Shown here in pieces: positions 278-56,398 of a stretch of 58,605 nucleotides of DNA; the stretch's first letter is position 1, and the number at the start of each line of letters is the position of its first letter. Origin of the DNA: an uncultured Saprospiraceae bacterium (GTDB taxonomy: Bacteria; Bacteroidota; Bacteroidia; Chitinophagales; Saprospiraceae). The stretch spans positions 1-58,605 of the forward strand of contig CAZDVQ010000024.1 in assembly GCA_964508975.1 (NCBI GenBank), read 5' to 3'. A program made the position numbers and the translations under genes. The notes under the pieces are model-generated. The model searched no databases, was not told the origin of the DNA, and was given only the letters and a program-made list of their open reading frames with translations.

Positions 278-413
278 TCCTGCGCAAGCTGCCCGGAAGG
301 CAGCGGCGTAGCCGCTGGTGCGCAGCACCGAGCGAACAGCGAGCCTGTAGGGGAGCGACCCCGCCTTGCGGTATCGCAAGGCGGGGATGCGCCCAAATCC
401 ATTAAAAAAGAAA

Positions 414-1250
414 TTATTCTACAAGGTGCTCTTGTTTGACCTGCAACACCTCGTAGTTATTGTTTGCGGGGTCGTTGCGGCTCACGAAGGCGATGATATG
501 GCATTTTTCGGCCCGCCAAAGCGCTGGCAGGGTAGTGCTAAAACTCTTGGTGCTAGGCAAACTGGCCAGCGGCTCGCCCTGCGTGTTGGGAAGCACCACG
601 CGCAACACATGTTTGTGCACGTAATTATCGTTGATCCCTGCTGGAGTAAGTTGCGCCGAGACGATGCTGTCCTCGGTTACATAAACCGTCAATACTAAAT
701 TGCTGCCTGCGTTGGCTATTTCTTCCACATCCACGGTTACATCGAGGTTGCGGGTGCCAGCGTTCCAGGTGTGGTCAAAATCTACGCGTACCTTGGCGCT
801 CTCGGCCAGTTCATCAGCGATTCTTGGGCCCCAATCGCTCAAAATCAAGGGCCTAGCACTTTGTCCGTTGAATGCTTTGCGGTTTACAATGGCCGCTGGG
901 TAGCCTGTTACTGGGCCATAAGTGGCGTTGATGGCTGTACCTTCGGCAACGGTTAAATTTTGGGTGCTTTGCGGGTAAACCTGCGAGAAAAAGCCCGTGT
1001 GGATAGAAACCGCCACGAGTTTGTCGCCGTGTTGGGCCAACAAATTTTCAATCTCGGCGCTACCACCGGGGCAGTTTACACATTTCACGCCGGTAAATTC
1101 TTCAATCATGACGCGACGTACGGTGTCAGAATTGTTGTTGTTGCCGCCACTACCTAGCTCGTTCTCGAGGTCGAGGCCCGGAGGGGTAATTTCTTCACAA
1201 GCCGTGAACAGCATGGCGCTGGCCAGCAAGAGGCACAATAAATGTTTCAT
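414..1250 (-). CDS. Omp28-related outer-membrane lipoprotein
   Basis: ATG start at 1250. Signal peptide with a lipobox (LLLASAMLFTAC). Poly-Asn linker and CxxC pair typical of Bacteroidota Omp28-family lipoproteins. Assignment is by family-level resemblance only. Confidence 0.55.
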   Translation of the reverse strand: MKHLLCLLLASAMLFTACEEITPPGLDLENELGSGGNNNNSDTVRRVMIEEFTGVKCVNCPGGSAEIENLLAQHGDKLVAVSIHTGFFSQVYPQSTQNLTVAEGTAINATYGPVTGYPAAIVNRKAFNGQSARPLILSDWGPRIADELAESAKVRVDFDHTWNAGTRNLDVTVDVEEIANAGSNLVLTVYVTEDSIVSAQLTPAGINDNYVHKHVLRVVLPNTQGEPLASLPSTKSFSTTLPALWRAEKCHIIAFVSRNDPANNNYEVLQVKQEHLVE

Positions 1251-1289
1251 ATCGTATTGGTTAAAGATATTTAATGTTTGTTTACTGGG

Positions 1290-3020
1290 CTAGAACCTGG
1301 TGGTACAACCAAAACGTACACCGCTGAATGCGGGTTCCAAGCGACAAATACCGCCTGTACAAACAACGCCTTGTGGTTGTTTCACGTAGCTGAGCGAGAA
1401 TTTACTGGCCTTGTGCGTATAAAAAATAGCCAAGGTTGGGTACAATACCGGGGCTTGGGTTTTAAAGGTGCCGTCGGGTTGTTGTTTCTCAATCACTTCG
1501 CCTAGCTTGCGGGGTTGCGTATTGACCAAGGCCGCAGCGGTAAAGGTCCATTTGCGGTTAAAAGTAAACTCAACCAAACCAAAAGCCCATGAACCGAGGT
1601 CGCCCTTGGTAAACATGTATTGGGATTCAAAGCGGATAGAATTTTTCTTGTCGATTTTGTAGGTAAACTCGGCAAATGGGGTGATACTGTTTACCACATC
1701 GTTCGAGTCTTTCACCAACTCTGTTTTCAATTCATAAAAACGTTGGTTATAGGCAATGTGTTGGATACCGCCAATCAATTTCCACTTGTTTTCTTTTTGT
1801 TTGTAGGTAGTTTCAAAGTAAACCTCGCGGAACAAATCGGGTTTAGCCAAGAAACCTACAATATCGTTTTGGGTCGTTGAAGTGCTTGAATAGTTAAGGG
1901 CAAAACCTAATTGCTTGGTAGGGTTGTACATCAAGTCGAGCATGTACGAGTTCTCGCTGAACTCTTGGGCAGCAGCATTATAACGGGCCGTTAAGCGGTA
2001 AGTGTTTTGGCGTTGCATCGGGGGTAAAAACGCAATGGCACCGCGGTTAAAACGCATGAAGGGTGAGGTGCGGAAGTAAAAATCCTCGGTATGTTTAAAC
2101 TGCAAGGTAGCACCAAAGCCTTTTGCGGCATAGCCCAAGCTGGTATACAAAATATAGCCCGGTTTATTTTTGACACGGACGTTACCGGTTTCAAGCAACT
2201 CGATATTATCTGGAATCGCCTCGGCTGTTTTGTAGGAGCCTTCCATGTACCAGCTAAAATCCTTTACGCGTAGGGTATTGTAAACCGTTGCAGCGTAGGT
2301 ATTGTACTTGGGTATAAAGCGGTTGGCCAAGCTATCGCTGTTGATGTTGAGCACGATGGTACGCATAGTATTATCGTCGAGCGAGCGGTTTACGAAACCT
2401 GCACCGGGAGCAATACTGATAGAGCCTGTACTATCGAGCTCGATATAGCCATCAATGGAGCCACCCGTAATCATCGGTTTAAAGGTTTCCAGTAAGTTTT
2501 CTTGCTCGTCAACTTTCTTTTGGCGGCCGGTGAAGGCTTTGATACGCCAGTTCTTGTTGATTTCGTAATCGAGCTTGATACCAACCAATGCGTTATCAAT
2601 GGCCAGCGGACGGGCCTCGTAAGCCCTGAAAATAATACCGCTACCAATTTGGTCGTAGAAATAACCTGCCGTTACGGTCAAGTTCTCGATTTTCTTGCGC
2701 ACGTGGAAACGACCAATACCCAAGGCCGTATAATTGGTGTTGGGGTTAATCAAGATACTGTTGGTAAACATATCGAATCGGACGCCGATATCAAATCCCT
2801 TGTTGCTGTAGTTGAGTGCGAGCCATGCATCGGCACCAACCTTCTGGTAATCATACTGTGGTGGGCCTACCGGCGGACCTGCGGCGCCAATCAGCGAATC
2901 CCGAATGAAAAAATTGGTGTTCAACTCTAGGTCACCAGAAAATTGTCCCTGGGCACTAGCATTGTTTTGGAAAGCCATCAAACACAGGAATAGCCCTACC
3001 AAACTGCGAGTCAATTTCAT
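1290..3020 (-). CDS. outer-membrane beta-barrel protein (DUF6029-like)
   Basis: The ORF extends to 3068, but the start is more likely the internal ATG at 3020, which opens a signal peptide (MKLTRSLVGLFLCLMAFQNNASAQ). The rest is rich in aromatic/Gly beta-strand pattern and ends in a C-terminal aromatic residue. Confidence 0.55.
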   Translation of the reverse strand: MKLTRSLVGLFLCLMAFQNNASAQGQFSGDLELNTNFFIRDSLIGAAGPPVGPPQYDYQKVGADAWLALNYSNKGFDIGVRFDMFTNSILINPNTNYTALGIGRFHVRKKIENLTVTAGYFYDQIGSGIIFRAYEARPLAIDNALVGIKLDYEINKNWRIKAFTGRQKKVDEQENLLETFKPMITGGSIDGYIELDSTGSISIAPGAGFVNRSLDDNTMRTIVLNINSDSLANRFIPKYNTYAATVYNTLRVKDFSWYMEGSYKTAEAIPDNIELLETGNVRVKNKPGYILYTSLGYAAKGFGATLQFKHTEDFYFRTSPFMRFNRGAIAFLPPMQRQNTYRLTARYNAAAQEFSENSYMLDLMYNPTKQLGFALNYSSTSTTQNDIVGFLAKPDLFREVYFETTYKQKENKWKLIGGIQHIAYNQRFYELKTELVKDSNDVVNSITPFAEFTYKIDKKNSIRFESQYMFTKGDLGSWAFGLVEFTFNRKWTFTAAALVNTQPRKLGEVIEKQQPDGTFKTQAPVLYPTLAIFYTHKASKFSLSYVKQPQGVVCTGGICRLEPAFSGVRFGCTTRF

Positions 3021-3144
3021 AAAATGTCGATTTAGGGTGTTTCTTAACGCATGCTTCGCATGAAACACACGCTTCGACTGCGAAGGTAGCTATTTCCCCT
3101 AAACACAGACGCGTTTAAACCAATAAAAGCGCTACAAGCCCTTG

Positions 3145-3762: not shown

Positions 3763-6579
3763 CTAGCGAGTCAAGTACATAGACCGTTCTTTGTCTAGTT
3801 TTCTGAAGTATGGGTCGTTCAAATCTTTGATAAAGTGGATGGCTTCTCCCGTTGATTTCATCTCAGGGCCGAGCTTTTTATCTACGTTCGGGAATTTATC
3901 AAAAGAGAATACCGGAATCTTAATCGCAAAGCCTTCTAGCTTTTTGGTTATCTCAAAATCTTTCAGCTTGTGTGTACCCAACATTACTTTGGTGGCAATA
4001 TTCAAATACGGTACACCGTATGCTTTGGCAATGAACGGCGTGGTACGAGAAGCACGTGGGTTGGCCTCAATTACGTACACTTTACCATCTTTAATGGCAA
4101 ACTGGATATTGATCAAACCGCGAGTGTTGAGGGCAAAAGCCAACTTACGGGTATACTCAATCATGGTGTCGATAATCTCCTGGCTGAGGCTGTGTGGTGG
4201 TAGTACCGCCGACGAGTCGCCAGAGTGGATACCTGCAGGCTCAATGTGTTCCATCACGCCCATGATGTGAACGTCATCCCCGTCGCAAATAGCATCAATT
4301 TCAGCCTCTTTGGCGCGATCTAAGAACTGGTCAATCAATATCTGGTTCTCAGGGATATGCTTCATGATATCAACTACCGAGCGTTCTAGCTCGTTGTCGT
4401 TGATTACAATTTTCATCCTTTGGCCACCCAACACGTACGACGGGCGCACCAAAACGGGGTAAGTTACCCGGCGAGCGATGGCCAAGGCTTCGTCGGCATC
4501 CGTAGCGATACCGTATTTAGGGTATGGAATTTCTAATTCCTTGAGCAAGTCCGAGAACTGGCCACGGTCTTCGGCCATATCTAGGGCCTCGTAGCTGGTT
4601 CCAATGATTTTGATACCTTTTTCGTGCAGGGTCTTGGCCAGTTTCAAAGCGGTTTGCCCGCCCAGCTGCACAATTACACCCTCGGGTTGTTCCAACTCGA
4701 TGATTTCCTCGAGGTGCTCCCAGTACACGGGTTCAAAGTAGAGTTTATCGGCCACGTCAAAGTCGGTCGAAACCGTTTCTGGGTTACAGTTGACCATGAT
4801 GGCCTCGTAATCCATTTCTTTCAGGGCGAGTAAGCCGTGCACGCAGCAATAGTCAAACTCAATACCTTGACCGATGCGGTTAGGACCTGAGCCTAAAACG
4901 ATGACTTTCTTTCTATCGCTGCGGATACTTTCGTTCTCTGTATCGAAGGTAGAGTAGTAGTATGGAGTTTTGGCTTCAAACTCGGCAGCACAGGTATCTA
5001 CCAGTTTATAGGTTCTGCGAATACCCAAACCTTTGCGGTAAGCGGTCACATCGCTGGCTTTACATTTCAACAACCAGGCAATTTGCTCATCCGAGTAGCC
5101 CAGCTGCTTGATATCCATTAGGAAATCAGCTGGTACATGCTCCAGTGCGCGGTAACGCATCAGGTTGTTTTCAACCTTGATCATGCGTTGAATCTGGCGG
5201 ATATACCAAGGGTCAATCTGGGTCAACTTGTGTACGGTGCCTTTCGGGATACCCAAGGTCAGGGCATCTTTCAGGCGGAAAATGCGGTCGTCTTTCGGCC
5301 ATTCCAAACCTTCGAGGATATCTTGGGTACGTTGCCAGTCTTTACCGTCGGCACCAAGGCCATGGCGGTTATTTTCTAGCGATTGACAAGCTTTTTGGAG
5401 GGCTTCCAAGAAGTTTCGGCCAATGGCCATCACCTCGCCTACCGATTTCATCTGTAGGCCTAGGCGTTGGTCGGCACCTTGGAATTTCTCAAAATTCCAG
5501 CGGGGCATTTTTACGATTACGTAGTCGAGCGTAGGCTCAAAATATGCCGAGGTGGTTTTGGTAATCTGGTTGTTCAGCTCGTCGAGGTGGTAACCGATGG
5601 CCAACTTCGAGGCAATTTTAGCAATAGGGTAGCCGGTAGCCTTACTGGCCAAGGCCGACGAGCGCGAAACCCGTGGGTTCACCTCGATGGGTATCAATTC
5701 CTCGGTAGCTGGGTTGAGGGCAAATTGCACGTTACAGCCGCCATGAAAGTTACCGATGGCACGCATAATCATGATGGCATCGTTGCGCATCTGCTGGTAG
5801 GCACGGTCTGATAGGGTCATGGCGGGGGCCACGGTGATACTATCGCCAGTGTGCACGCCCATGGGGTCGAGGTTCTCGACAGTACATATAATAACCACGT
5901 TGTCGTTGGCATCGCGGAGGAGCTCCAACTCGTATTCTTTCCAACCCAACACGGCTTGTTCAACCAACACCTCGTGTGTCGGCGATGAATTCAAACCGTG
6001 GCGTAGGGCCTCGTCAAATTCTTCTTCTTTCATGACGAAACCACCACCGGTACCGCCCAAGGTGTATGAAGGACGTATAACTAGCGGAAAACCAATGTCT
6101 TGTGCAGCTTCTTTACCTTCCAAGAACGAGTTTGCAATGGCCGATTTAGCCACGTTCAAACCCAATTTAACCATGAGGCGTTTAAACTCCTCGCGGTTCT
6201 CGGTACGGTCAATGGCTTCAATATCAACACCAATCAAGCGTACACCATATTTTTTCCAGATGCCAAGTTCTTCGGCTTCTTTGGCCAGGTTCAAGGCCGT
6301 TTGGCCACCCATGGTAGGTAGGCAGGCGTCAATCTGGCGTTCCTTCAAAATCTCCTCTATACTCTCCACGGTAAGTGGTTTGAGGTAGATATGGTCGGCC
6401 GTGACCGGGTCGGTCATAATGGTAGCCGGGTTGGAGTTAATGAGGGAAACTTCAATGCCTTCTTCACGAAGAGAACGAGATGCCTGTGAACCGGAATAAT
6501 CGAATTCGCAGGCCTGACCTATGATAATCGGTCCGCTTCCAATGATGAGTACTGAGCGGATGGACGAGTCTTTCGGCAT
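3763..6579 (-). CDS. carB: carbamoyl-phosphate synthase large subunit
   Basis: 938 aa. N-terminus IIGSGPIIIGQACEFDYSGSQA, a duplicated ATP-grasp architecture and a second LGSGPNRIGQGIEFDYCCVH repeat are the canonical CarB signature. Confidence 0.95.
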   Translation of the reverse strand: MPKDSSIRSVLIIGSGPIIIGQACEFDYSGSQASRSLREEGIEVSLINSNPATIMTDPVTADHIYLKPLTVESIEEILKERQIDACLPTMGGQTALNLAKEAEELGIWKKYGVRLIGVDIEAIDRTENREEFKRLMVKLGLNVAKSAIANSFLEGKEAAQDIGFPLVIRPSYTLGGTGGGFVMKEEEFDEALRHGLNSSPTHEVLVEQAVLGWKEYELELLRDANDNVVIICTVENLDPMGVHTGDSITVAPAMTLSDRAYQQMRNDAIMIMRAIGNFHGGCNVQFALNPATEELIPIEVNPRVSRSSALASKATGYPIAKIASKLAIGYHLDELNNQITKTTSAYFEPTLDYVIVKMPRWNFEKFQGADQRLGLQMKSVGEVMAIGRNFLEALQKACQSLENNRHGLGADGKDWQRTQDILEGLEWPKDDRIFRLKDALTLGIPKGTVHKLTQIDPWYIRQIQRMIKVENNLMRYRALEHVPADFLMDIKQLGYSDEQIAWLLKCKASDVTAYRKGLGIRRTYKLVDTCAAEFEAKTPYYYSTFDTENESIRSDRKKVIVLGSGPNRIGQGIEFDYCCVHGLLALKEMDYEAIMVNCNPETVSTDFDVADKLYFEPVYWEHLEEIIELEQPEGVIVQLGGQTALKLAKTLHEKGIKIIGTSYEALDMAEDRGQFSDLLKELEIPYPKYGIATDADEALAIARRVTYPVLVRPSYVLGGQRMKIVINDNELERSVVDIMKHIPENQILIDQFLDRAKEAEIDAICDGDDVHIMGVMEHIEPAGIHSGDSSAVLPPHSLSQEIIDTMIEYTRKLAFALNTRGLINIQFAIKDGKVYVIEANPRASRTTPFIAKAYGVPYLNIATKVMLGTHKLKDFEITKKLEGFAIKIPVFSFDKFPNVDKKLGPEMKSTGEAIHFIKDLNDPYFRKLDKERSMYLTR

Positions 6580-6744
6580 GGCTTTGTTTTATATTCTCGC
6601 GAAGATACACTAATTTAATTTTTTGTCATTTTATCACCCATCATTTATTCAGTTATTGACTATTTTCTACATTTCATATGCTATCGATAGTCTTTCACGT
6701 TGTTCGTTCCACGTTCATTGTTCATCGTTCATTGTTCATCGTTA

Positions 6745-6898
6745 TTTGGGCACCCGGCTCGCGTTGCTCGCCGTCGCTATGCTACGGCGCTCGCTGTTCG
6801 CTCGGCCCTGCGCCGCAGAGCGGCTTGGTCTGGCCTCCCTTTGGTCGGCCACGCCTCCGCAGCGCTGGTGCATTTAGGGCTGGGTTTACCGCCACGCG
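6745..6898. repeat. GC-rich REP/MITE-like intergenic repeat, copy in TTTGGGC-first orientation
   Basis: Begins tatttgggcacccggctcgcg and contains ctacggcgctcgctgttcgctcggccc, a motif shared with at least 13 other loci in the window. Preceded by two tandem copies of gttcattgttcatc. Confidence 0.8.
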
Positions 6899-6904: not shown

Positions 6905-6975
6905 AAATGTGCTATTTGTTGCATATTATGCAACGAATAGATAGTATATTTGTCGCAAATTATGCAACAAATGAG
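6905..6975 (+). promoter_or_regulatory. putative promoter/operator of the Fic gene
   Basis: TATATTTG at 6943-6950 matches the Bacteroidota -7 consensus TAnnTTTG, with TTTG further upstream. Palindrome TTGCATAtTATGCAA at 6919-6933 and a related half-site GCAAATTATGCAAC at 6955-6968 overlap the start region. Confidence 0.35.
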
Positions 6976-8074
6976 CATTTACATCCATCAACTTCCCCAC
7001 TGGCCCCAGTTTACCTGGGATTCAAAGCGCTTGATAAACCTACTGGGCGAAGCAAGGCTTATACAAGGCATGCTATTAGGCAAGATGGAAACACTAGGTT
7101 TTGAACTCAAGGCTGAAGCCATGCTTGATACCATGACCCTTGATGTCATCAAATCAAGCGAAATTGAAGGCCAAATTTTCGATCTAGAACAAGTCAGGTC
7201 ATCCATTGCCAGGCGTTTAGGCATTCAACACAACGCCGAAGTTGAAACCAGCCGTAACCTAGAAGGCATGGTTGAAATGCTTTTGGATGCAACGCAACAG
7301 TGTTCCGCACCACTATCTGCTGAACGGCTTTTCGACTGGCATGCAGCTCTTTTCCCCACCGCCCGCAACGGTATGTTCAAAATTATAGTTGGCGATTGGC
7401 GTAAGGACTTGAAAGGGCCCATGCAAGTGGTATCAGGTGCTATAGGGAAAGAACAAGTCCATTTTCAAGCACCAGCCGCCAACCTGCTTGAAAATGAAAT
7501 GTTGCAGTTTATACAATGGTTCAACCACGACAAGGAGACCGACCTTGTGCTAAAAGCGGGTATTGCTCATTTATGGTTCGTGACCATCCACCCCTTTGAA
7601 GATGGTAATGGCCGTATCGCACGTGCGCTAGCCGATATGCTCTTGGCTCAATCTGATAATAGCCCGCAACGCTTTTATAGCATGTCGGCACAAATCAGGT
7701 TACAAAGGAAGCACTACTACAATATCCTCGAAAGCACGCAAAAGGGCAACCTTGACATCACCAACTGGTTAGTGTGGTTTTTAGAATGCCTGATTGAAGC
7801 CATTAAAGCCAGCGAGTCCACGTTGAACCAAGTGTTGCTCAAGGCTGCGTTTTGGCGCAAACATGCCACAACGCCACTCAACCCAAGGCAGCAAAAAATG
7901 CTGAACAAACTATTAGATGGTATGGAAGGCAAACTCCACTCGGCCAAATGGGCCAAAATGGCCAAATGCTCCCGCGATACGGCTATCCGGGATATTAACG
8001 ACCTGCTCGACAAAGCAATACTGACCAAGGAAAATGCTGGAGGCCGTAGTACGAGTTATGTGTTGAGCGAGTGA
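6962..8074 (+). CDS. Fic/DOC family protein (putative AMPylator)
   Basis: HPFEDGNGRIARAL matches the Fic motif HPFx[DE]GNGR. The ORF track starts on TTG at 6950; the first ATG is at 6962. A winged-helix-like C-terminal region follows the Fic core. Confidence 0.85.
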   Translation: MQQMSIYIHQLPHWPQFTWDSKRLINLLGEARLIQGMLLGKMETLGFELKAEAMLDTMTLDVIKSSEIEGQIFDLEQVRSSIARRLGIQHNAEVETSRNLEGMVEMLLDATQQCSAPLSAERLFDWHAALFPTARNGMFKIIVGDWRKDLKGPMQVVSGAIGKEQVHFQAPAANLLENEMLQFIQWFNHDKETDLVLKAGIAHLWFVTIHPFEDGNGRIARALADMLLAQSDNSPQRFYSMSAQIRLQRKHYYNILESTQKGNLDITNWLVWFLECLIEAIKASESTLNQVLLKAAFWRKHATTPLNPRQQKMLNKLLDGMEGKLHSAKWAKMAKCSRDTAIRDINDLLDKAILTKENAGGRSTSYVLSE

Positions 8075-8075
8075 G

Positions 8076-8186
8076 CCTTCTTGCGCCAGGCATGCGAAGC
8101 GTGGCCGCGATAGCGGCCAGCCCGAAGGGCCGAGCGTCCAGCGAGCGCGTAGCACGCCGACGGCCGTAGGCCGGGGCGCCCAAAAA
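8076..8186. repeat. GC-rich REP/MITE-like repeat, GCGCCAGG-first orientation
   Basis: Reads gcgccaggcatgcgaagcgtggccgc...gggccgagcgtccagcgagcgcgtagcacgcc...ggggcgcccaaaaaac, the reverse complement of the 54358-54480 copy. Confidence 0.8.
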
Positions 8187-22405: not shown

Positions 22406-22435
22406 TTGGGCGCTAAAATGGTAACTTTGCGCCAC

Positions 22436-34990: not shown

Positions 34991-35129
34991 AATATATTTT
35001 TGATTCGTTCCCATTTAATTTAATTTTTTTTAAACATCCTTGTCAATCGTTGGAAAATTGGCTCTTATGCAAATCTTAGGTTATTGGTTGGTTTGAGAAG
35101 TTTTGTAAATGTGTCACCAAATGCAATGG

Positions 35130-46467: not shown

Positions 46468-46872
46468 GCAGTTCTGCCCCCCTGTCTTCACTTCGTTCAG
46501 ACATCCCCCCACTCGCTTCGCTTCGCGTGGGGGGATGTCACCAGCGCTAGCGCAGTGACAGGGGGGCAGACGGGCATCGCCAAAATTGCGCCTCCCCCCG
46601 GCGCTGCACGCCGACCCCCTCCACTGCACAGACGCTGCGCGGCCGTTGGTAGCGGGGGTTGGGCCGAGCTTAGCTCGGCCGAGGGGGGACGCAGCGGCAA
46701 AAACTGTACTAATCGTAGCGCCTGCTTAGGGCATGTCCGTTCATAGTTCATTGTTCATCTTTTCCTAGCGCCAGGTGCCCGGCGGGCGCGGCTGGAAGCC
46801 GCGGTGCGAAGCACGGAGCGAAGCGAACCCCAGAGGGGACCGCCGCCGCGCAGCGGCGGGGCGCCCAAAAAC
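46468..46872. repeat. composite GC-rich repeat region (nested hairpins plus REP/MITE-like copy)
   Basis: Nested inverted repeats ggggcagttctgcccccctgtc ... gacaggggggcagac and gacatccccccac ... gtggggggatgtc. A 46621-46690 segment is shared with 24010-24062 (ccactgcacagacgctgcgcg.ccgttggtagcgggggttgggccgagct). The region ends with gttcatagttcattgttcat plus ccaggtgcccggcg...ggggcgcccaaaaacc, as at the 6.7-kb copy. Confidence 0.8.
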
Positions 46873-48580: not shown

Positions 48581-48919
48581 TAAACCTATTCGACTGGGTT
48601 ATACTTGACCCGTTTAGGTAATACTATATTACAATTTGCGAAATTTTTGGAATATCGCCCCCGTCTAAGCCCCAACGACACATTTTCCGCTCCAATCTCC
48701 TCTCTTCTATCTCCGCTCTCCTATCTAAGCCCCGTGGCCCACATTGACCACGGGGACCGCCCAAAATGAATAAATGATAAAGGGAATAAATGAATAAACG
48801 ACATGCACGGCACTTACCTTAATGTACCAATTAAAGGGTACATACTTACACGTATATAGACTCTGTAATTTGATAGGTATTTGTTTTCGGTATTCTAAAA
48901 TGCCGTAGACTTACGCCCG

Positions 48920-50350
48920 CTAGTCCTCGCGACTACCGTCAGCAGCCATACGCACCATTTTTGGTTGGAACATGGCCACCACGTCAACCAGCTCGGTTTG
49001 CGCTTGCATCACCTCGTGGATGTTTTTGTAGGCCATCGGTGCCTCGTCGAGACCACCGCCAATCAAGGTTACGCCGTGTAGTTTCAACTCGTCGCGCAGG
49101 GCTTGCTTGGTCCCAGCCTTGATGGCCTTGGTTCGGCTCATCTGTCGACCAGCGCCGTGCGAGGCTGATTGCAACGCGCTTTCAACTCCTTTTCCGCGCA
49201 CCAAGAAGCCTGGTGCCGTCATGCTACCTGGGATAATACCCATCACGCCTTTGGCGGCAGGGGTTGCTCCTTTACGGTGTACAATCACTTCCTCGCCGTT
49301 CCAGATCTCTTTCCAGGCGAAGTTATGGTGGTTTTCTACCTTGGCCAACACGTGGCCACCGATGGCTGCCGTCAGTTTTCGGTGGATGACCTCGTGGCAG
49401 GCCGAGGCGTAATCGCCAGCCAGGTTCATGGCCAACCAGTACTCCATACCTTCTTGGCTATCCAGCGACAAGTACGCTAGGTTTTGGGCTTCTTGCGGCA
49501 ATTTACACAGGCTCTTGGCCAACTTGGTGTAATGCCCGGCAATGGTTGCCCCGAAACCGCGTGAACCAGAGTGGGTCAACAAAGCCACGTATCGGCCTTT
49601 TGGTATACCCAGGACCTCGTCGGCCTGGGCAAACTCAATGATGCCCCACTCCACGAAATGGTTTCCACCACCCGAGCTCCCCAGTTGGGAATAAGCCTTA
49701 TCACGCAGGTTTTTCACGAAAGGGTTGATGTTGAACAAGTCGTTTTCCAGCACGGCATGGTCGCTCTTGTACTGTGGTTTAAAGCCATGTCCAGCGCCAA
49801 ACAAGCTATGGGCAATCAACTCGCGTTTGTACTTGGCCTCGTTTTCCAAGAAATGGCTTTCCGGGATATCGTAGATACTCAAGGCCATTCGGCAACCGAT
49901 GTCCACGCCCACGCCGTAAGGTATAATCGCATTCCGGGTAGCCAACACCCCGCCGATAGGCAGGCCGTAGCCCTGGTGGGCATCTGGCATCAAGGCCCCG
50001 GCCACGGTAACGGGTAGTTTCATGGCGGTTTTCATCTGTAGGTGGGCGCCTTCCTCGATATGTTCGGTCCCGAACACGGCGTACTCGGCAGGGTTTTCCA
50101 ACAGCTCGATACAGGCATCGGCTTCGGCTTGCTCGGCGATATCCAATAGGCAGCGGGCTACTTGGTTAAAGTATTCCATATCCAAGAAATCGGCTGGGTT
50201 TTCCAGCACTTGTTGCAGGGTTTGCAGCAAGATCTCGGCTGGCATATGCGGCAAGTGTTGCTCGGCGATTTGCAAGGCAATACCGATGGCCTTGTTCTCG
50301 GCATAGCCGAGGGCGAGGAGATGTTCTCCGCCTATAATATTATTTTTCAT
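48920..50350 (-). CDS. rtcB: RNA-splicing ligase RtcB
   Basis: 476 aa with metal/GTP-binding motifs DAHQGYG, GVDIGCRM, HSGSRGFG and NHHNFAW, and the catalytic His in SHGAGR. Confidence 0.9.
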   Translation of the reverse strand: MKNNIIGGEHLLALGYAENKAIGIALQIAEQHLPHMPAEILLQTLQQVLENPADFLDMEYFNQVARCLLDIAEQAEADACIELLENPAEYAVFGTEHIEEGAHLQMKTAMKLPVTVAGALMPDAHQGYGLPIGGVLATRNAIIPYGVGVDIGCRMALSIYDIPESHFLENEAKYKRELIAHSLFGAGHGFKPQYKSDHAVLENDLFNINPFVKNLRDKAYSQLGSSGGGNHFVEWGIIEFAQADEVLGIPKGRYVALLTHSGSRGFGATIAGHYTKLAKSLCKLPQEAQNLAYLSLDSQEGMEYWLAMNLAGDYASACHEVIHRKLTAAIGGHVLAKVENHHNFAWKEIWNGEEVIVHRKGATPAAKGVMGIIPGSMTAPGFLVRGKGVESALQSASHGAGRQMSRTKAIKAGTKQALRDELKLHGVTLIGGGLDEAPMAYKNIHEVMQAQTELVDVVAMFQPKMVRMAADGSRED

Positions 50351-51035
50351 AGTATGGATTTAACTCCACAAAAGTCAATTTTACTAATAATTTTAAAAAT
50401 TCAAAGGACTTTTGCGTAAATTCATTCACAAAGCCTTGTGATGTTATTTGATAAGACCTATGAACACCAGGTTTTCCATCTAATAAGCAATGATAGTTTG
50501 AATTCAAAAGAATTCCATCCAGTTTTTGTAGGAATGATTCGAAGTTGTCCTGTTTTGCGCTGAAATAAAAACTACCCATGGGATAATGGGCAAATTGGTT
50601 TCTCAGTATTCTAAATAGGTATATTTGAGTTCGTAATGACTGAAATTCCTGGGATAAATTTACATCTTTAAGCAGATTATTCATGGCATCTTCTGGGCTT
50701 GAATAAGTTACAATTTCTGTGGGCTCTAAATTTTTGCACCTCCATTGGTAATGAAAAAGTATGTTGTTTATAGAATTATCTAATAGAATAGTCAATTCAA
50801 TCAATGCGTTTTTAAACATTATAGAGTGAGTTATGCTTTCTACCCCTGCTTTCTTTTCCAATGAATTATTTATAATGCATTCGCTAGCAAAAGAATAAAT
50901 ATTAATCACATTGTTCACACCCGCAGCATATTCTTGAGGGAGTCCATGCACTAAATTATCCCAAAAATTCTTGCCAAGCTTGTCATTTGTGGTTATTGAT
51001 GAAAATAATATTGAATGCCTTTTCCTTTTATTCAT
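50340..51035 (-). CDS. hypothetical protein with an RNxxAH HEPN-like motif (possible Abi/HEPN RNase)
   Basis: 231 aa, low GC, overlaps the rtcB start by 11 nt. Motif LFRILRNQFAHY fits R-x4-H, as in Abi_2/DUF4145-type HEPN domains. Confidence 0.5.
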   Translation of the reverse strand: MNKRKRHSILFSSITTNDKLGKNFWDNLVHGLPQEYAAGVNNVINIYSFASECIINNSLEKKAGVESITHSIMFKNALIELTILLDNSINNILFHYQWRCKNLEPTEIVTYSSPEDAMNNLLKDVNLSQEFQSLRTQIYLFRILRNQFAHYPMGSFYFSAKQDNFESFLQKLDGILLNSNYHCLLDGKPGVHRSYQITSQGFVNEFTQKSFEFLKLLVKLTFVELNPYYEK

Positions 51036-51083
51036 GATGGAGTAATATTAATTATTCGGAATACTAAAATATGTTTCAAAAAA

Positions 51084-51944
51084 CTATTCACGGTCTTTCA
51101 TCCAAACCCAGGAAGTGTAATCGTTCGAGCTCGCACGCGGGGAAATTTCATCTAATTCATAGGTGCCATCTTCTTGCAAAACATTAATCAATAGAGGCCC
51201 ATCTATTGCCTTACGCAAGTAAATATTACCATAAAATTCAAAATACTGCAATAGGTAATCATGGACAAGCAGCGTTTTATGAATTATTTCAGCCCATTGC
51301 TTAAACGAAAGGCTGTAAACGGAATCGAGATTTTCCTTAGCATTTCCATATCCAATATTATTACCCATGAAAAAGTATTGAGAGTGTGCAATCGAGTTTC
51401 GAATTTGCGTATTGTAGATATCTTTAACTAGCTTTGAAAATTTCGGACAAGAAACCTCTGTAGGCTTAATAATTTTTTCTAAGATGAAAGAGCTTCTCCT
51501 ATAAAGTTCCCTTGAGAGATCGTTCCATCTATAATTTTTATGATTAGCTAAATTGATAAGTTGATGAATTTTTTTTAAGGTCATTTCGGATTCCCAAAAT
51601 TTCAGGTAAATTTGTTTTTCAATGTTGATGGAATAGAGTTCTGTATTTTTCAGTTTTGTATCTAATTGGGCCTGCACTTCAAACTCTTCCATCGTTCCAG
51701 GAAGTTTGTAAGCCTCTCGGTGGAGTATTAAAAATTGATTTACGGTGGACTCGCAGTGCCCTATTATATCAGGTCCCAAGCAACGCTTAGTCTCTCCGTT
51801 TGCATCTTTTTGAAAACATGCATGGGCAATAACTAGCAGTAAATCCTGCTCATGCTTTTGGTTCTGAAAAGCATTTTTAAATAGTTCTTCAACAGCTTGA
51901 CCTACTTCGTCTCTGTATTCCTTAACAATTTCATCAAAAATCAT
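51084..51944 (-). CDS. hypothetical protein with an RNxxAH HEPN-like motif (paralog-like to the 50340-51035 gene)
   Basis: 286 aa, low GC. Motif NTQIRNSIAHSQY has the same RN..AH pattern as its neighbour. Confidence 0.5.
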   Translation of the reverse strand: MIFDEIVKEYRDEVGQAVEELFKNAFQNQKHEQDLLLVIAHACFQKDANGETKRCLGPDIIGHCESTVNQFLILHREAYKLPGTMEEFEVQAQLDTKLKNTELYSINIEKQIYLKFWESEMTLKKIHQLINLANHKNYRWNDLSRELYRRSSFILEKIIKPTEVSCPKFSKLVKDIYNTQIRNSIAHSQYFFMGNNIGYGNAKENLDSVYSLSFKQWAEIIHKTLLVHDYLLQYFEFYGNIYLRKAIDGPLLINVLQEDGTYELDEISPRASSNDYTSWVWMKDRE

Positions 51945-52023
51945 GATTTGAGATTTAGAAGATTATTAGATTTTTTAGTTTTAAACTGGAATTTACATCA
52001 AGATTTAGCCATGATGATAGTGC

Positions 52024-52944
52024 TTAGCTTTTTTTATGAGGTGTAGATATTTTAACAGTTGTTTTTATTTGAACAATTCCTTTGTTAATAGAATTGCTTT
52101 TCTCTATTACGTCCTTGCCAAAAATGGGTACTTCAACAGGTAAATTTGCTTTCACATCTTTTTCAAATTTCAAAGATAGTCTCCGGAAATTGATTAAACT
52201 ATATATCAACTCCGAGCAAAACAACGTCATTTTATAATCCCTTTCATGGTTTTGAATTTTTGTCACAACACTCAGTTCATCTTTTTTAGATCCTTTTGTG
52301 TAGAAAGACATTGAGTCTTCTAGGTTAACATTCATAAGTGGTTTAACGGTCTTAGGATCGACAAATGTAACTTTAGAAAACATCGGTACAATTCTAAGTC
52401 CATGTTTATAAGAATTGTACTCTGTTCGATCTGAAAAGTCTTTGGCGAGAATAGTAATACCATATTTTATGGCGCCAATGCTTTCCAAAATATCTTTAAT
52501 AAATTCTTTATTATTAAATATGCCCATATAGAACAAATAATGTCCAACGGTAACGTGATGTCCTTGAAAGTTTATTTTTTTATCTAGAAAATTTAGAATT
52601 TCAGGATTTTCCGCTATCCGATTTATGAAGGCGTAATTCTTCTGCCAATTAGAATTTGTAATATTGAAAAGAATATTTTTATCATCAAAACTTTCCTTTC
52701 CATCAGGATTGAGCGCAAACAGTAGCTCAAAAAAACTTTCAATAGCATGAAAGTAATTTTGGCGAAGTTCGCTTTTGAGGGTTCTACGAATAGAATCTCT
52801 ATCTTCATCAGAAGTATCCTCTCCAAAGAACTCTTTTAGATAGTTTTCCTCTAGTCCAGCTATCATTTTGTTTAAATAAGTAGCTTTGTACTTGTGGTAC
52901 TTAGAAATGTAAGATTGGTAAAATAATTCTGGCTCAAAATACAT
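52024..52944 (-). CDS. hypothetical protein (low-GC island gene)
   Basis: 306 aa with ATG start, coding-like periodicity, no TM segments. Contains ELRQNYFHAIE (R-x4-H), but this could be coincidental. Confidence 0.45.
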   Translation of the reverse strand: MYFEPELFYQSYISKYHKYKATYLNKMIAGLEENYLKEFFGEDTSDEDRDSIRRTLKSELRQNYFHAIESFFELLFALNPDGKESFDDKNILFNITNSNWQKNYAFINRIAENPEILNFLDKKINFQGHHVTVGHYLFYMGIFNNKEFIKDILESIGAIKYGITILAKDFSDRTEYNSYKHGLRIVPMFSKVTFVDPKTVKPLMNVNLEDSMSFYTKGSKKDELSVVTKIQNHERDYKMTLFCSELIYSLINFRRLSLKFEKDVKANLPVEVPIFGKDVIEKSNSINKGIVQIKTTVKISTPHKKS

Positions 52945-52984
52945 GATTCGTTATTTTTCAATGTAATAGAAAGTAAGTTAAACG

Positions 52985-53045
52985 AGGAATGTAGGGGCAG
53001 GGCTCGCCCCTGCCCAACAACATCGCGGTTTTTGGGGCTTAGGAA
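52985..53045. repeat. short GC-rich hairpin repeat related to the internal hairpin of the REP family
   Basis: gtaggggcagggctcgcccctgccc, compare gggcaggggcaagccctgcccc at 13540-13562. Confidence 0.5.
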
Positions 53046-53114
53046 TCAGGTTTCAGCTGCTAGGCATCAGTATAATAACTAACCCCTAATAACTAAAACC
53101 TAATCCCTCACACC

Positions 53115-54357: not shown

Positions 54358-54480
54358 GGATGATTTGGGCACCCCGCCGCTACGCGGCGGCGGTCCCCTA
54401 CGTGCTCGCTATTCGCTCGGCCCCTGGCGGGGCTGGCCGCTACGCGGCCACACTCCGGGCACCTGGCGCAGCATCATCTT
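54358..54480. repeat. GC-rich REP/MITE-like repeat, most canonical copy
   Basis: tttgggcaccccgccgctacgcggcggcggtcccctacgtgctcgctattcgctcggcccctggcggggctggccgctacgcggccacactccgggcacctggcgc. Reverse complement of 55236-55352 at better than 85% identity. Confidence 0.85.
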
Positions 54481-54785
54481 ACTGTTAAGTCAAGGTTTGT
54501 AGCAACAAGCTTAGCTGAAAGCGTGGCGCGAGCCAGTGCCCGCGGCGATTCAAAGCGCTACAAGCGCTGAATCCCTTGTTGTGTTAAGTTCCCGAGCAAA
54601 ATTACTTTACGTTAAAAACTTGCATATTTCCAGTCATACTTCGTTGTAAAAAGTGCGTCGTAGGAACCACTACGCCTTATTTTTACGCCTCGTCTGCCAG
54701 AAAATCTGCGGCGTTTTTATTTGTAAGCAATTTCGCCCGAGAACTTACAACCGAATGCCTTTGCACTCGCCTTGCTGAACATTTG

Positions 54786-54946
54786 AAAAGTGTTCGACTT
54801 TTAAAGGATGGATTAAAATTCCATTGCATGACCACTATGCTACCCCACGATGCCGTGGGGGCAGGATTCGAACCTGCGTGAATGAAGTGTTGCTCTACCA
54901 GCTGAGCTATTGTTCTTGCGAACAAATGGGACTCGAACCCACGACC
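54786..54946 (-). pseudogene. cluster of tRNA-like modules in non-canonical (permuted/degenerate) order; no intact tRNA could be folded
   Basis: Read 5' to 3' on the minus strand, the modules run as follows. T-arm GTGGG-TTCGAGT-CCCAT. Closed hairpin TTGTTC-GCAA-GAACAA. TA plus D-arm GCTC-AGCTGGTA-GAGC. A 13-nt unpaired segment. T-arm GCAGG-TTCGAAT-CCTGC. Closed acceptor-like hairpin CCCCACG-GCAT-CGTGGGG. TA plus D-arm GCAT-AGTGGTC-ATGC. Anticodon arm ATGGA-ATTTTAA-TCCAT (UUU, Lys). Degenerate T-like arm AAAAG-TCGAACA-CTTTT. Acceptor strands pair only with the neighbouring unit. ORF-track entries 54683-54949 (-) and 54824-55099 (+) are translations of these modules (AQLVEQ, GFESH, GSNPA). Confidence 0.45.
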
Positions 54947-55235
54947 CACACGCTGTTGAATTTTTTGCGGCTACTAAACATACCGTGCAAGAGGCTTGTC
55001 GGCATTGTGGTGCTATACAGAAACACCGACGCTGAGTGGCTCATTCTTTCAACATTGCAAAGATGTAGGCAATACTGCGCAGTATATTTGCGCAGTTAAA
55101 TTTATTTTTGAAAAAGTTGAAAATTTATGCCCATTTAATTTTTAATATATTGATATTCAATATTTTAAAATTAAAATTATTTTTCAAAAATTTAACCACT
55201 AAAATCACATTTACACAAGTGCGCAGATAGATTGC

Positions 55236-55352
55236 GTTGTTGTCCGCGCCAGGTGCCCGGCGTGTGGCCGCGTAGCGGCCAGCCCCGCAAGGGGCCGAGC
55301 GTCTAGCGAGCACAGAGGGGACCGACGGCGCGCTAGCGCCGGGGCGCCCAAA
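55236..55352. repeat. GC-rich REP/MITE-like repeat, GCGCCAGG-first orientation
   Basis: gcgccaggtgcccggcgtgtggccgcgtagcggccagccccgcaaggggccgagcgtctagcgagcacagaggggaccgacggcgcgctagcgccggggcgcccaaacc. Confidence 0.85.
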
Positions 55353-55480
55353 CCAATCACACAACTTAATTCGTTGATTAGGTAAAAATAACTTAACTAA
55401 TTTTTACATCTTTGTGCTACGGCGTACCATGCCTACTATCAAACGCTTCAAAGATTGCTTCAAAAACAAAACTTATACAC

Positions 55481-56191
55481 ATGAAAACGCTGCTTTTAAC
55501 CTTGTTCATACTGTTTAGCACTGCGCAATTGAGCCTGCAGGCCCAAAAGTTTTTGCGTCCATTTGAAACTTTTTCACATAGTTTACCCGCTTACATCACG
55601 CTTGAGGACGGTGTAGAGTTTGAGTGTACCATCAAGAAAATAGAGCGTAAAAAAGGCCTTATCGAGACGATTTACGTATCCACTGCCACAGAGAAAAAAC
55701 GCGAAATTGCCATAGAGACTATCAAGCATGCTTACCTTCCACAGAGTGGTTGGGACAAGATGATCGATTTCAATGATGTAATATACAGTGCCAACCGATG
55801 GGAAGATGGCTTATACGATAAGGAACGTATCAAGGCAGGTTATGCCTATTTTGAAAAAGCTACTGTAATTGTAAAGGATAAAGAAAGTACTATGCTTATG
55901 CAGTTGCTTAACCCACATGGTTCGGCCCGCATCAAAGTATACCACGACCCATTTGCTACAGAAACCATGGGTGTTGGGGTTGCGGGTATTCAATTGACCG
56001 GTGGCGACGATAGGTCATACTACATCAGCAAAGACGGTGCAACGGCCTATAAATACACCAAGAAAGAATTTAGGACCGATTTCAAAGGCCTGTTTGGCGA
56101 TTGCCAATCGGTGCTTGATACCTATGGCAAATCGGCTTGGTCAGAGTTTGAAAAAATCATGTTTAACTACAATTATACTTGCAGTAAGTAA
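55481..56191 (+). CDS. hypothetical secreted protein
   Basis: ATG at 55481 opens a signal peptide (MKTLLLTLFILFSTAQLSLQAQ); the ORF track starts upstream at 55412. No recognisable domain. Confidence 0.5.
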   Translation: MKTLLLTLFILFSTAQLSLQAQKFLRPFETFSHSLPAYITLEDGVEFECTIKKIERKKGLIETIYVSTATEKKREIAIETIKHAYLPQSGWDKMIDFNDVIYSANRWEDGLYDKERIKAGYAYFEKATVIVKDKESTMLMQLLNPHGSARIKVYHDPFATETMGVGVAGIQLTGGDDRSYYISKDGATAYKYTKKEFRTDFKGLFGDCQSVLDTYGKSAWSEFEKIMFNYNYTCSK

Positions 56192-56398
56192 GCTTTGTGG
56201 GTGTGCCTTTCCGGGTACTTTGCGTTTGCCCTGCCCTTGCGCTAGGCATGCATAGGGCAGCGCCGTAGGCGCTGGTACGAACCACGAAGTGCTCCGCAAA
56301 GGAGCGAAGCGACTGCGCGAACAAAGCACGGAGCGAATAGCGAACCCCGGAGCACGCCGACGGCGCGCAGCGCCAGGGCGCCCAAATTATAAGAACAA
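56192..56398. repeat. GC-rich REP/MITE-like repeat (extended copy)
   Basis: gcgtttgccctgcccttgcgctaggcatgcatagggcagcgccgtaggcgctgg...cggagcgaatagcgaaccccggagcacgccgacggcgcgcagcgccagggcgcccaaatt. Confidence 0.8.

Follow-up and report, generated by a model that had tools for sequence, protein, structure and literature searches.

The question raised by this locus, a 58,605-nt stretch of DNA from an uncultured Saprospiraceae bacterium (the window), is what kind of element the GC-rich repeats that recur between its genes represent. A covariance model (model positions 1-121) built from relatives in other genomes located 12 full-length copies in the window, with E-values from 1.5e-13 to 1.3e-3. A thirteenth (c10) was matched by neither the covariance model nor nhmmer and was recognized through its alignment with the other copies; its core is 2 nt shorter (TTCGCT--TCGCTC) and its hairpins carry TGC/TTC triloops (Table 1). 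Each of the 13 copies is intergenic and flanked by open reading frames with Pfam support, and their GC content is 0.66-0.80, compared with 44-56% in the surrounding DNA. The motif GGCCGCTACGCGGCCAC, at three mismatches or fewer, occurs six times in the window, against 0.07 expected from shuffles. The repeat family proposed in an earlier note on this DNA is thus real, and the 13 positions given there differ from the copies found by a few tens of bases at most. Two of them had been described as near-perfect reverse complements; 54383-54469 and 55246-55332 are 91% complementary over 87 nt. Within the longest proposed element, 46468-46872, the part corresponding to c10 is a family member, while the rest is not, and 46609-46681 is a different, MITE-like repeat. 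A supposed fragment at 3045-3100 had no match by covariance model or nhmmer, and one at 52985-53045 is not a truncated unit but a solitary GGGCAGGGGC.AGCCCTGCCCC hairpin module, of which c4 contains an inserted copy. This module lies within units of loci L030, L038, L050, L059 and L089, and many Lewinellaceae copies carry it as c4 does.

Table 1. Repeat copies and the solitary hairpin module in the window, with covariance-model scores and genomic context.
Feature	Position	Strand	Bits (E-value)	Details
c1	282-394	-	42.5 (5.8e-7)	Full length; closing helix GCGCA/TGCGC; DNA fold z-score -5.4; Omp28 gene (414-1250, -) stop ~20 nt from TTT end
c2	6748-6871	+	73.6 (1.5e-13)	Closing helix GCACC/GGTGC; between divergent carB (3763-6579, -) and Fic (6950-8074, +)
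c3	8083-8181	-	39.1	Closing helix GCGCC/GGCGC; 9 nt past Fic stop; Fic gene separates it from inverted partner c2
c4	13471-13620	+	66.4	150 of 181 nt between TonB-receptor start (13450) and DtxR-family gene stop (13632); extra hairpin module at 13541-13567
c5	14464-14574	-	53.1	14 nt past stop of 1548-aa Por-tail protein; DtxR gene between it and inverted partner c4
c6	22453-22567	+	38.6	DNA fold agrees with model; 115 of ~155-170 nt between divergent starts of PMT_2 (~22436) and M20 peptidase (22592 or 22607)
c7	24265-24368	-	29.2	
c8	29912-30018	+	72.0	Left border of low-GC restriction/defence island
c9	42736-42838	-	39.0	Right side of low-GC island, upstream of OEP gene
c10	46768-46866	-		~40 nt upstream of DUF2400 start; identified by alignment with other copies
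c11	54367-54469	+	38.1	Upstream of Band_7 gene
c12	55246-55349	-	26.8	Inverted copy of c11 (91%)
c13	56239-56375	-	26.7	Between ORF 55412-56191 and histidine-kinase gene
GGGCAGGGGC.AGCCCTGCCCC module	52990-53016	.		Solitary; 96% inverted repeat over 27 nt with 13541-13567

The range of the family is the order Saprospirales, with copies in Saprospira, Aureispira, Lewinella, Phaeodactylibacter and many Saprospiraceae and Lewinellaceae MAGs; a search with the 20-nt core recovered at least 99 stretches from S. grandis and these other groups. The covariance model gave 162 matches in 825 kb, nearly all of them full length. At the highest densities there is one copy per ~2.4-4.5 kb, and copies number in the hundreds per genome, with the number differing between genomes. 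No Rfam family matches the repeat, RefSeq annotates nothing under the copies, and none of the papers searched contains the core sequence; the family is apparently new to description.

The units are 100-170 nt long and contain five or six helices as well as a three-way junction. A T-run and GG are followed by a 5-bp closing helix, a variable hairpin, a conserved internal loop and a 4-bp helix leading to the three-way junction, after which two last hairpins close the unit. The long single strand of the junction is the invariant CTCGCTRTTCGCTC; the invariant core common to all copies spans 14-20 nt, with a single-stranded junction part of 14 nt. The helices co-vary, with Watson-Crick pairs only. 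In the covariance-model alignment, which is fitted to the structure and drawn from loci selected for having the core, 94.6% of cells are paired (73.1% in shuffles; at most 60% in slid controls) and 641 cells carry double changes (224 in shuffles). A sequence-only MAFFT alignment gave 91.7% paired, compared with 74.3% in shuffles. Of the termini that had been considered conserved, TTTGGG is general, while the five bases after it vary and invariably complement the five with which that copy ends. The 13 window copies have 10 different closing 5-mers, fully complementary to the copy's own 3' end in 12 and with one mismatch in c11. The minimum-free-energy DNA fold of c3 is the model structure; single-copy thermodynamic z-scores are mostly not significant. 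Whichever way they are read, the units have no trailing T-run, and this speaks against a canonical intrinsic terminator. The triloops are strongly polar, with 156 TNC and 4 GNA, so that C(GNA)G is read on the opposite strand, and the closing pair is C-G in 251 of 334. This polarity could stem from copy-and-paste inheritance between units and not from selection.

The Watson-Crick-only pairing, together with the strand asymmetry of the triloops, leads us to infer that the folding form is single-stranded DNA and not RNA. A cis-acting structured RNA in mRNAs or operons, acting as an RNase processing site, stabilizer or attenuator, with inverted neighbors pairing as sense and antisense across a gene, is on this basis unlikely. 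Such an RNA would fit the multi-helix architecture, the strong covariation, the invariant junction strand and the tolerated hairpin insertions, and copies lying inside operons, 1-20 nt from stop and start codons, must be transcribed; the alternating orientation described below would also place complementary 20-nt cores in both flanks of a bracketed gene. However, G·T mismatches (35), the G·U of an RNA, are not in excess over A·C (38), each being below the other mismatches (113), and the loops are the DNA-favored C(GNA)G triloops rather than GNRA or UNCG tetraloops. Orientation relative to the flanking ORFs is random (24/20/21/19), so in half of the cases the complement would be transcribed; the genomic copy number in the hundreds and the lack of an Rfam match also speak against an RNA.

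The stability of the copies was assessed at nine window sites by comparison with a 95-99% identical relative (loci L101 and L107), in which all compared sites are kept except c12. Copies c9 and c10 are 100% identical in L107, as is c6 in L101; c8 is 98% identical in L101, with differences confined to hairpin loops. The stop codon of M20 directly adjoins c7 in L101, and comparison with that locus shows that in the window a 452-bp MITE has invaded the end of c7, with a 10-bp duplication, TGCGTTAGGC. The stems of c4 and c11 and the interior of c5 have been swapped for other perfect stems in the relative: c4 occupies the same site in L101, with P6 stem GGCGGC/GCCGCC replaced by GGCCC/GGGCC; c5 has matching flanks and a completely different interior (57% identity); and c11 has, in L107, an ortholog that lacks 35 nt internally and whose P4/P6 stems are different but likewise perfect. 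The c13 ortholog (L107, 16431-16544) differs at its TTT-proximal end. Perfect-stem replacement is likewise seen between plasmids, and two Lewinellaceae species share an orthologous copy that is more conserved than its flanks.

These comparisons render improbable the suggestion that the copies are classical MITEs, non-autonomous cut-and-paste elements whose two ends are bound by a transposase supplied in trans. High copy number that differs between genomes, complementary ends, composite plasmid units of ~500 bp in which two inverted copies surround a shared spacer, and the presence of c12 in the window but not in its close relative would all be expected of MITEs. The complementarity of the ends is, however, limited to 5 bp and varies from copy to copy, no target-site duplication was seen for the copies, and no transposase was found near them. 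At c12 the two genomes differ by the replacement of a segment, 55243-55493 being exchanged in L107 for an unrelated AT-rich 187 nt, and not by a precise insertion. None of the nine window sites showed a clean insertion or empty site, and none of 20 evaluable plasmid sites a clean gain or loss, whereas three classical TIR/TSD elements were gained or lost within the stretches compared. As no clean insertion/empty-site pair was found, only copy number and between-genome variation point to past mobility.

Orientation alternates between neighboring copies: in S. grandis loci, 50 of 61 pairs alternate (p = 5e-7), as do 10 of 12 in the window and 19/20, 18/19 and 21/21 on three Saprospira plasmids, the co-directional pur operon included. 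Short doublets, with 49-321 nt between their members, are always tail-to-tail, and a common spacer occurs in four per plasmid. The partners of inverted pairs resemble each other no more than random pairs do (0.61 vs 0.62), and many tail-to-tail pairs flank ordinary housekeeping genes, which a simple doublet-insertion model fails to explain. That orientation is selected, the copies being sites for a shufflon-like site-specific recombinase or comparable protein, or architectural sites for gyrase or a nucleoid protein, would agree with the near-perfect alternation, the near absence of direct neighbors (11/61), the invariant core in every copy and the inverted copies flanking each gene block, but is very improbable given that the three plasmids are collinear, as are the window and its relative, without inversions, that the core lacks the dyad symmetry of a recombinase site, that no recombinase lies consistently next to the copies, and that selection against direct neighbors alone would leave direct i/i+2 pairs.

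On balance, we consider it probable that the copies are extragenic palindromic units of the REP/BIME kind, a Saprospirales-wide family new to description. The REP/BIME likeness recognized in the earlier note holds in that these are high-copy, GC-rich, strictly intergenic palindromic modules in both orientations, with neighbors mutually inverted. REP, BIME and REPIN elements with their RAYT transposases are known from E. coli and Pseudomonas (PMC3116915, PMC3733652, PMC6006769). The Saprospirales units resemble them in being GC-rich, extragenic and high-copy, in palindromes thought to work as single-stranded DNA hairpins, in inverted neighboring units with head-to-tail pairs rare, and in several subfamilies per genome with vertical inheritance and long-lived positions. 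In size and structural complexity they far exceed classical REPs, and they have neither the single 20-40-nt hairpin nor the conserved GTAG or CGTC tag nor the flanking RAYT that mark those elements; their invariant part is the single-stranded junction, and their alternation is not limited to clusters but spans whole replicons with genes in between. A search for a RAYT returned one RAYT-like gene, at L017 (ortholog, L105), where it adjoins a minimal copy. This gene has its own canonical GTAG REPs, and no copy was found near 80 other loci encoding its relatives; the link to the units is not convincing, and no mobilizing enzyme was found.

The acting form would be the folded single-stranded DNA of the ...GCCCAAA strand; a lineage-specific protein may recognize the invariant GAGCGAAYAGCGAG motif that this fold exposes. 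The family may have spread in the past by way of single-stranded DNA, possibly in tail-to-tail doublets like REPINs, in which case alternation would be automatic. Short-patch gene conversion or template switching among hundreds of copies could keep the copies uniform and their stems perfect.

Other known elements share some of these features. Pneumococcal BOX, enterobacterial ERIC/IRU and Neisseria Correia and NIME/dRS3 elements are likewise ~100-150 nt long, intergenic, modular and sometimes co-transcribed with flanking genes, with variable inner modules and predicted extended stem-loops. Each of those families is restricted to one genus or family and ends in long terminal inverted repeats, frequently accompanied by target duplications (TA for Correia), whereas the Saprospirales units have a 5-bp closing helix, no duplication and an order-wide range. 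We know of no report of strict alternation for these elements. Integron attC sites are comparable in their conserved structure, variable sequence and variable central hairpins, and in a function presumed to reside in one strand's folded single-stranded DNA; the Saprospirales units lack RYYYAAC/GTTRRRY core sites and an integrase, and are inverted, dispersed and flank housekeeping genes, while attC sites all point the same way within one cassette array. The ssoA-type single-strand origin is a structured element of ~150 nt, active only as one strand's single-stranded DNA, with a conserved unpaired TAGCG(T/A) motif, and the folding strand of the Saprospirales units has TAGCGA in its invariant junction. 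An sso occurs once per rolling-circle plasmid and is orientation-dependent relative to replication, in contrast to hundreds of chromosomal copies in both orientations, and the shared hexamer may be due to chance.

The repeat family announced in the earlier note is real: a search for repeats, counts of its motifs and an alignment of the 13 stretches that the note had named all agree. Since an nhmmer profile search of the window gave 11 of the 13 copies and no new ones, we substituted a covariance model, R1, which derives from relatives in other genomes and not from the window copies. R1 returned 12 full-length matches (E-values 1.5e-13 to 1.3e-3; GC 0.66-0.80) against a background of 44-56% GC with low-GC islands. 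The 13th copy, c10 (46768-46866; copies are numbered c1 to c13 from left to right), has a core two bases shorter and was recovered solely by alignment; its sequence is 100% identical in a close relative (loci L101 and L107, the latter being the relative's DNA reached by an exact-protein look-up). It is also the part of the proposed repeat at 46468-46872 that belongs to the family, while the remainder does not. Two proposed fragments dropped out: the one at about 52985-53045 contains a solitary hairpin module (52990-53016), and that at 3045-3100, missed by R1 and nhmmer, is not a family member. The description as strictly intergenic held, with every window copy lying between Pfam-supported ORFs (carB, Fic, acs, TonB receptor, DtxR-family, PMT_2, M20 peptidase, SLT, DUF3109, OEP, DUF2400, Band_7 and histidine kinase). 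ORF callers extend gene starts across the units (window 20828-22615 (-) and 22292-23800 (+); L101 8222-9952), and the JGI gene call for PMT_2 takes in the c6 unit; the true starts flanking c6 probably lie near 22436, and at 22592 or 22607. R1 could be used to mask over-extended starts (e.g. 20828-22615) and the spurious Arg/Ala-rich ORFs.

Units are 80-189 nt long (median 120), with 22 modelled base pairs in eight helices. On the T-strand, which starts TTTGGG, a unit opens with a T-run (TTT in 92-96% of S. grandis copies) and GG, followed by an arm of 5 nt, complementary to the unit's final 5 nt, with which it forms helix P1. After P1 come a variable hairpin (P2) and a subfamily-specific internal loop, for example GCGCTACGTTTC opposite GCACATCGCT; the 4-bp helix P3 then precedes the invariant single strand CTCGCTRTTCGCTC, past which a GGCC(C)/GG(G)TC helix is built around an optional variable hairpin (P4/P5). 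One base separates this from hairpin P6, and one more base separates P6 from the returning strands. The minimal 80-nt unit, at locus L017, is without P2, P5 and P6, and some copies have additional hairpins inserted at loops. Each genome holds several subfamilies, set by the internal loop and common to different genera.

Among 150 aligned copies, 94.6% of cells are standard pairs, against 73.1 ± 0.5% in shuffled alignments, and double-change cells number 641 against 224; with the partner slid by one to three columns as a control, pairing is at most 60%. As this first alignment had been fitted to the model, the count was redone for 42 copies aligned with MAFFT from sequence only, which gave 91.7% pairing versus 74.3% and double changes at three of the four P3 pairs, whose columns had no part in sequence trimming. 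P1 takes the form of 10 different 5-mers among the 13 window copies and is fully complementary to its own 3' end in 12 of them, c11 having one mismatch. Minimum-energy DNA folds of c3, c6, c7, c9 and c12 match the model. Single-copy folding energies are no better than those of shuffles, except for c1; weak z-scores are expected because the DNA is 70-80% GC, and thermodynamic z-scores were set aside as an uninformative test of the fold for DNA this GC-rich.

Such covariation could point to a structured non-coding RNA family, but G·T cells (35) are about as frequent as A·C cells (38), one fixed G·T in P4 being left out of the count, and both are outnumbered by other mismatches (113); Rfam contains no family that matches the units, at the gathering threshold or down to E = 1. 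The lack of a G·T excess argues against RNA, since G·U pairs should abound in an RNA under selection. Unit orientation relative to flanking long ORFs is also random, the four possible arrangements occurring 24, 20, 21 and 19 times, and a 6:1 bias seen in the window vanished in this larger sample. A reading of the T-run plus G as the TAnnTTTG of a Bacteroidetes -7 box fails at position -6, which is T in 75% and A in 3% of copies. The hairpins are not followed by a T-run on either strand, which speaks against a canonical intrinsic terminator.

The triloops are polar. On the T-strand, TNC occurs 156 times (TGC 79, TTC 53, TAC 20) versus four occurrences of GNA, and a C-G pair closes 251 of 334 triloops; the opposite strand reads them as C(GNA)G with the middle base free. 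C(GNA)G is an exceptionally stable mini-hairpin loop in DNA, as in d(GCGAAGC). From the missing wobble excess, the random gene orientation and the polar triloops, we infer that it is the ...GCCCAAA strand that folds, in the form of single-stranded DNA.

The 20-nt core GCTCGCTRTTCGCTCGGCCC matched at least 99 stretches. Among the matches listed, whose genomes do not include the window's own, Saprospira grandis DSM 2844 accounts for about 40, and others are in Aureispira, Lewinella, Phaeodactylibacter and many Saprospiraceae and Lewinellaceae MAGs; a few core-carrying MAGs bear the labels Cytophagales, Flavobacteriales or Chitinophagales. Window proteins share 62-69% identity with proteins from Phaeodactylibacter, Lewinellaceae and Saprospiraceae, and a single JGI metagenome contig matches the window at 95-99% identity. 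R1 found 162 copies, nearly all full length, in 825 kb of fetched DNA; these loci were selected via the core. Copy density is 13 per 58.6 kb in the window, 20-22 per 50 kb in three Saprospira plasmids and 101 per 280 kb in S. grandis loci, which were picked for holding a copy. Extrapolation from these local densities puts the copy number per genome between several hundred and about a thousand, and the share of the units at a few per cent of Saprospira-type genomes. Units fill most intergenic gaps, even within the pur and paa operons, and break short-read assemblies, and R1 may serve as a marker of Saprospirales contigs in metagenomes. The core is absent from viral contigs, and RefSeq places no annotation under the copies. 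Among the papers searched, none has the core sequence or deals with repeats in these taxa, and the supplements of PMC6006769 name neither the taxa nor the core.

Comparisons of orthologous sites covered one close relative and one plasmid lineage. Comparison of the window with its close relative revealed that c6, c9 and c10 are identical and that c8 differs in loops only. The P6 stem of c4 is GGCGGC/GCCGCC in the window and GGCCC/GGGCC in the relative; the interior of c5 is wholly replaced, resembling c6 in the window and c4 in the relative; c11 has a 35-nt deletion in the relative, where its P4 and P6 stems are perfect but of another sequence; and c13 differs at one end, while c7 is broken by other insertions in both. 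Copy c12 is missing from the relative, which has unrelated sequence in place of segment 55243-55493. It is a 91% inverted copy of c11, and the window's orientation string would alternate at this position if c12 were removed. In the three plasmids, with flanks 76-100% identical, every evaluable copy has a positional match in one or both of the other plasmids with one exception, the paaZ gap, where strain CCB-QB6 has a shorter non-family remnant and a swapped P5 stem distinguishes strain Lewin from strain WH. A copy at a shared site in two Lewinellaceae species is more conserved than the DNA on either side of it, and one of its pairs is G-C in one species and C-G in the other. At locus L001 two subfamilies are combined in a chimera, which lies 1.8 kb away from the apparent donor.

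Nine window and 20 plasmid sites gave no clean empty site and no target site duplication (TSD); the 5' TTT flank (in 92-96% of S. grandis copies) is without a matching 3' repeat. By contrast, three other elements in the same DNA are polymorphic, with TSDs of 10, 3 and 8 bp (see table). The 452-bp element sits in the end of c7 and is absent from the orthologous site in L101, while the 197-nt insertion, found among the three plasmids only in strain CCB-QB6, recurs in the S. grandis DSM 2844 chromosome (L067, L085). Unlike these classical mobile elements, which are gained and lost, the units are positionally stable and internally fluid. The suggestion that they are MITEs did not survive, terminal inverted repeats (TIRs) of at least 10 bp, TSDs and precise presence/absence all being wanting. 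Internal change at fixed positions is consistent with short-patch gene conversion, or with template switching, between the many copies, which would also account for double changes without wobble intermediates.

Mobile elements, doublet spacers and other features in the window and comparison loci
Feature	Locus	Position	Remarks
452-bp MITE-like element	window	23813-24263	59-bp TIRs, 23860-23918 / 24200-24258, 93% complementary; 10-bp direct repeat TGCGTTAGGC on flanks
Further copy of 452-bp element, different site	L107	10638-11041	
Piece related to 452-bp element	window	42515-42673	
Piece related to 452-bp element	window	46609-46681	
160-bp MITE	L101	13267-13426	perfect 13-bp TIRs GCGTATGTTTGGA, TAA duplication; only in relative
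Empty site of 160-bp MITE	window	26261	
Partial copy of 160-bp MITE	window	26832-26893	
197-nt insertion	L191	about 21205-21401	8-bp flanking repeat ATTT(A/C)AT(T/C); adjoins purB-purD unit
Doublet spacer	L190	157-387	
Doublet spacer	L190	5427-5660	
Doublet spacer	L190	46294-46616	
Doublet spacer	L192	11061-11342	
Doublet spacer	L192	15077-15349	
Doublet spacer	L192	19041-19281	
Doublet spacer	L192	24255-24488	
Low-GC island	window	30070-42197	30-35% GC; between c8 and c9
Segment missing from relative	window	35116-42613	SF1-helicase-PIN and 1583-aa genes
Segment missing from relative	window	47661-48916	one 303-aa ORF
Segment missing from relative	window	50345-53068	three ORFs, 31-39% GC, without Pfam match
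Segment missing from relative	window	54582-54752	171-nt stretch
RtcB gene	window	48920-50350	near YrlA-like match
YrlA-like match	window	54785-54950 (-)	between c11 and c12; sub-threshold Rfam YrlA (42.2 bits, E 5e-6) and tRNA (27, 24.7 bits)
GTTCAT(T/C) heptamers, short tandem repeats	window	6701-6743	beside c2
GTTCAT(T/C) heptamers, short tandem repeats	window	46734-46762	beside c10
GGGTGAAA/GGGGGCTAAA-type array	window	29745-29860	upstream of c8
Further GC-rich palindromes	window	46468-46700	beside c10; e.g. GACATCCCCCCAC[TCGCTTCGCTTCGC]GTGGGGGGATGTC

Neighbouring units alternate in orientation. In the S. grandis loci 50 of 61 neighbour pairs do so (p = 4.6e-7), as do 37 of the 47 pairs more than 1 kb apart (p = 1e-4) and 10 of 12 pairs in the window. 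Two of the homologous Saprospira plasmids read +-+-+-+-+-+-++-+-+-+- and +-+-+-+-+-+-+-++-+-+, and the third is -+ repeated 11 times (21/21 alternating). Alternation persists within co-directional operons, as in purQ E+ purH E- purC purB E+ purD E- purN purF E+, where E denotes a unit. Doublets with gaps of 49-321 nt are all tail-to-tail with their T-runs outward, and the gap in the opposite arrangement, with T-runs inward, is never below 1.1 kb; in the S. grandis loci +- gaps are shorter than -+ gaps (Mann-Whitney p = 1e-5). Each plasmid has four doublets with a homologous AT-rich spacer of 229-321 nt, forming composite units of ~500 bp. The spacers of the plasmid tail-to-tail doublets are 35-44% GC, mutually homologous in either orientation, and have inverted repeats of their own (AATAAAGATTCCGTTA/TAACGGAATCTTTATT, CTGTGGGT..ACCCACAG and ATCGC-GAA-GCGAT).

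Inverted pairs of this kind might be the ends of composite transposons or mobile cassettes. However, partners are no more alike than random pairs (similarity 0.61 vs 0.62), TSDs are lacking, and the enclosed genes are ordinary ones (purD, rpiB, Clp ATPase, PorP, peptidases, ABC-F protein, Omp85); the unremarkable similarity and the housekeeping content argue against mobile-cassette ends. Inversion sites of the shufflon type are contradicted by the collinearity of the three plasmids, and of the window and its relative, with no minus-strand blocks.

A search for an associated REP-associated tyrosine transposase (RAYT) had been suggested. A motif scan (HUH regex) of ~0.9 Mb found a single HUH-Y1 ORF, in L017 (NCBIfam REP_Tyr_transpos 53.8 bits, below the cut-off of 80; Pfam Y1_Tnp 21.5 bits). 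This RAYT-like ORF lies 25 nt from the minimal unit, with the same layout in a 68% identical ortholog, L105. Inside the gene, which occupies L017 5884-6446 (-), a canonical double-foot GTAG REP, GTAGAGACAGAATATATTCCGTCTCTAC, is inserted in frame, and another stands at its stop codon; by virtue of these REPs the gene looks like a member of Bacteroidetes RAYT subclass 2.4, as described in PMC6006769. Its relatives share the same 'VETxxxASL' peptide insert, and none of the 83 loci encoding them (80 metagenome and three other loci) has a unit within 1.5-3 kb. No transposase was found in the unit flanks. The loci searched thus yielded one RAYT-like neighbour of a minimal unit but no convincing association with the units, as this sole adjacent gene has its own GTAG REPs.

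The likeness to REP/BIME elements was borne out in that the units are high-copy and extragenic with inverted neighbours (13 copies in 58.6 kb; 21-22 per 50 kb plasmid, all between annotated CDS). Being palindromic and vertically stable as well, and probably of single-strand DNA character, they are in the right neighbourhood with REP/BIME. A REP, however, is a single imperfect palindrome of ~20-40 nt, whereas units have 80-189 nt and eight helices. REPs also have a conserved tag, GT[AG]G (or CGTC), left unpaired where the hairpin begins, and the units as a family do not: on the folding strand, GTAG stands near the foot of the first hairpin only in subfamily A (…AACGTAGCGCC…), with ACAG, ATAG and GGGA in subfamilies B, C and D. 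REPs flank a single-copy RAYT as its cognate repeats; in the loci searched, one RAYT-like ORF, scoring below cut-off, lies beside a minimal unit. MITEs have TIRs of at least 10 bp matching those of a transposase element; units have only the 5-bp closing helix, which differs among copies. Integron attC sites, with R''/R' sites RYYYAAC / GTTRRRY, lie in direct orientation in a cassette array next to intI, whereas units end in GGG plus a variable 5-mer, alternate, and stand beside housekeeping genes (purH, purD, clpB). The units therefore fail as REPs on size and tag and probably on RAYT, and fail equally as MITEs, an RNA family, attC sites or shufflon sites.

A more ambitious reading, which we consider rather improbable, is that the units would be folded single-strand DNA sites, distributed genome-wide and read via the invariant GAGCGAAYAGCGAG junction by a Saprospirales-specific protein, and not selfish leftovers; strict alternation would be required, bracketing each gene block with inverted sites, and an active process would keep restoring the stems to perfect palindromes. 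If true, the units would be a system of chromosomal punctuation, recombination or priming of a new kind, for which no counterpart has been described. The combination of an invariant motif, wobble-free perfect helices, DNA triloops of one polarity, stem swapping between near-identical strains and near-perfect alternation also makes the family a clean natural system in which to ask by what means bacteria copy, homogenise and tolerate repeats, and whether REP-like elements serve the host.

A number of additional features accompany the copies in the window. The low-GC island has Eco57I/MmeI-type methylase-restriction genes and an HTH gene, besides genes for an SF1-helicase-PIN protein of 771 aa and for a protein of 1583 aa without Pfam match, and the segment with the latter two genes is missing from the 98% identical relative; none of the three other segments missing from the relative is bordered by units. 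The array upstream of c8 is entirely different in the relative. The loop of the example palindrome beside c10 repeats the unit core's TCGCT motif, and in many S. grandis copies hairpin loops are likewise made up of TCGCT. The YrlA-like match may represent a Y-RNA-like gene, and the ORF at 54824-55099 is probably spurious.
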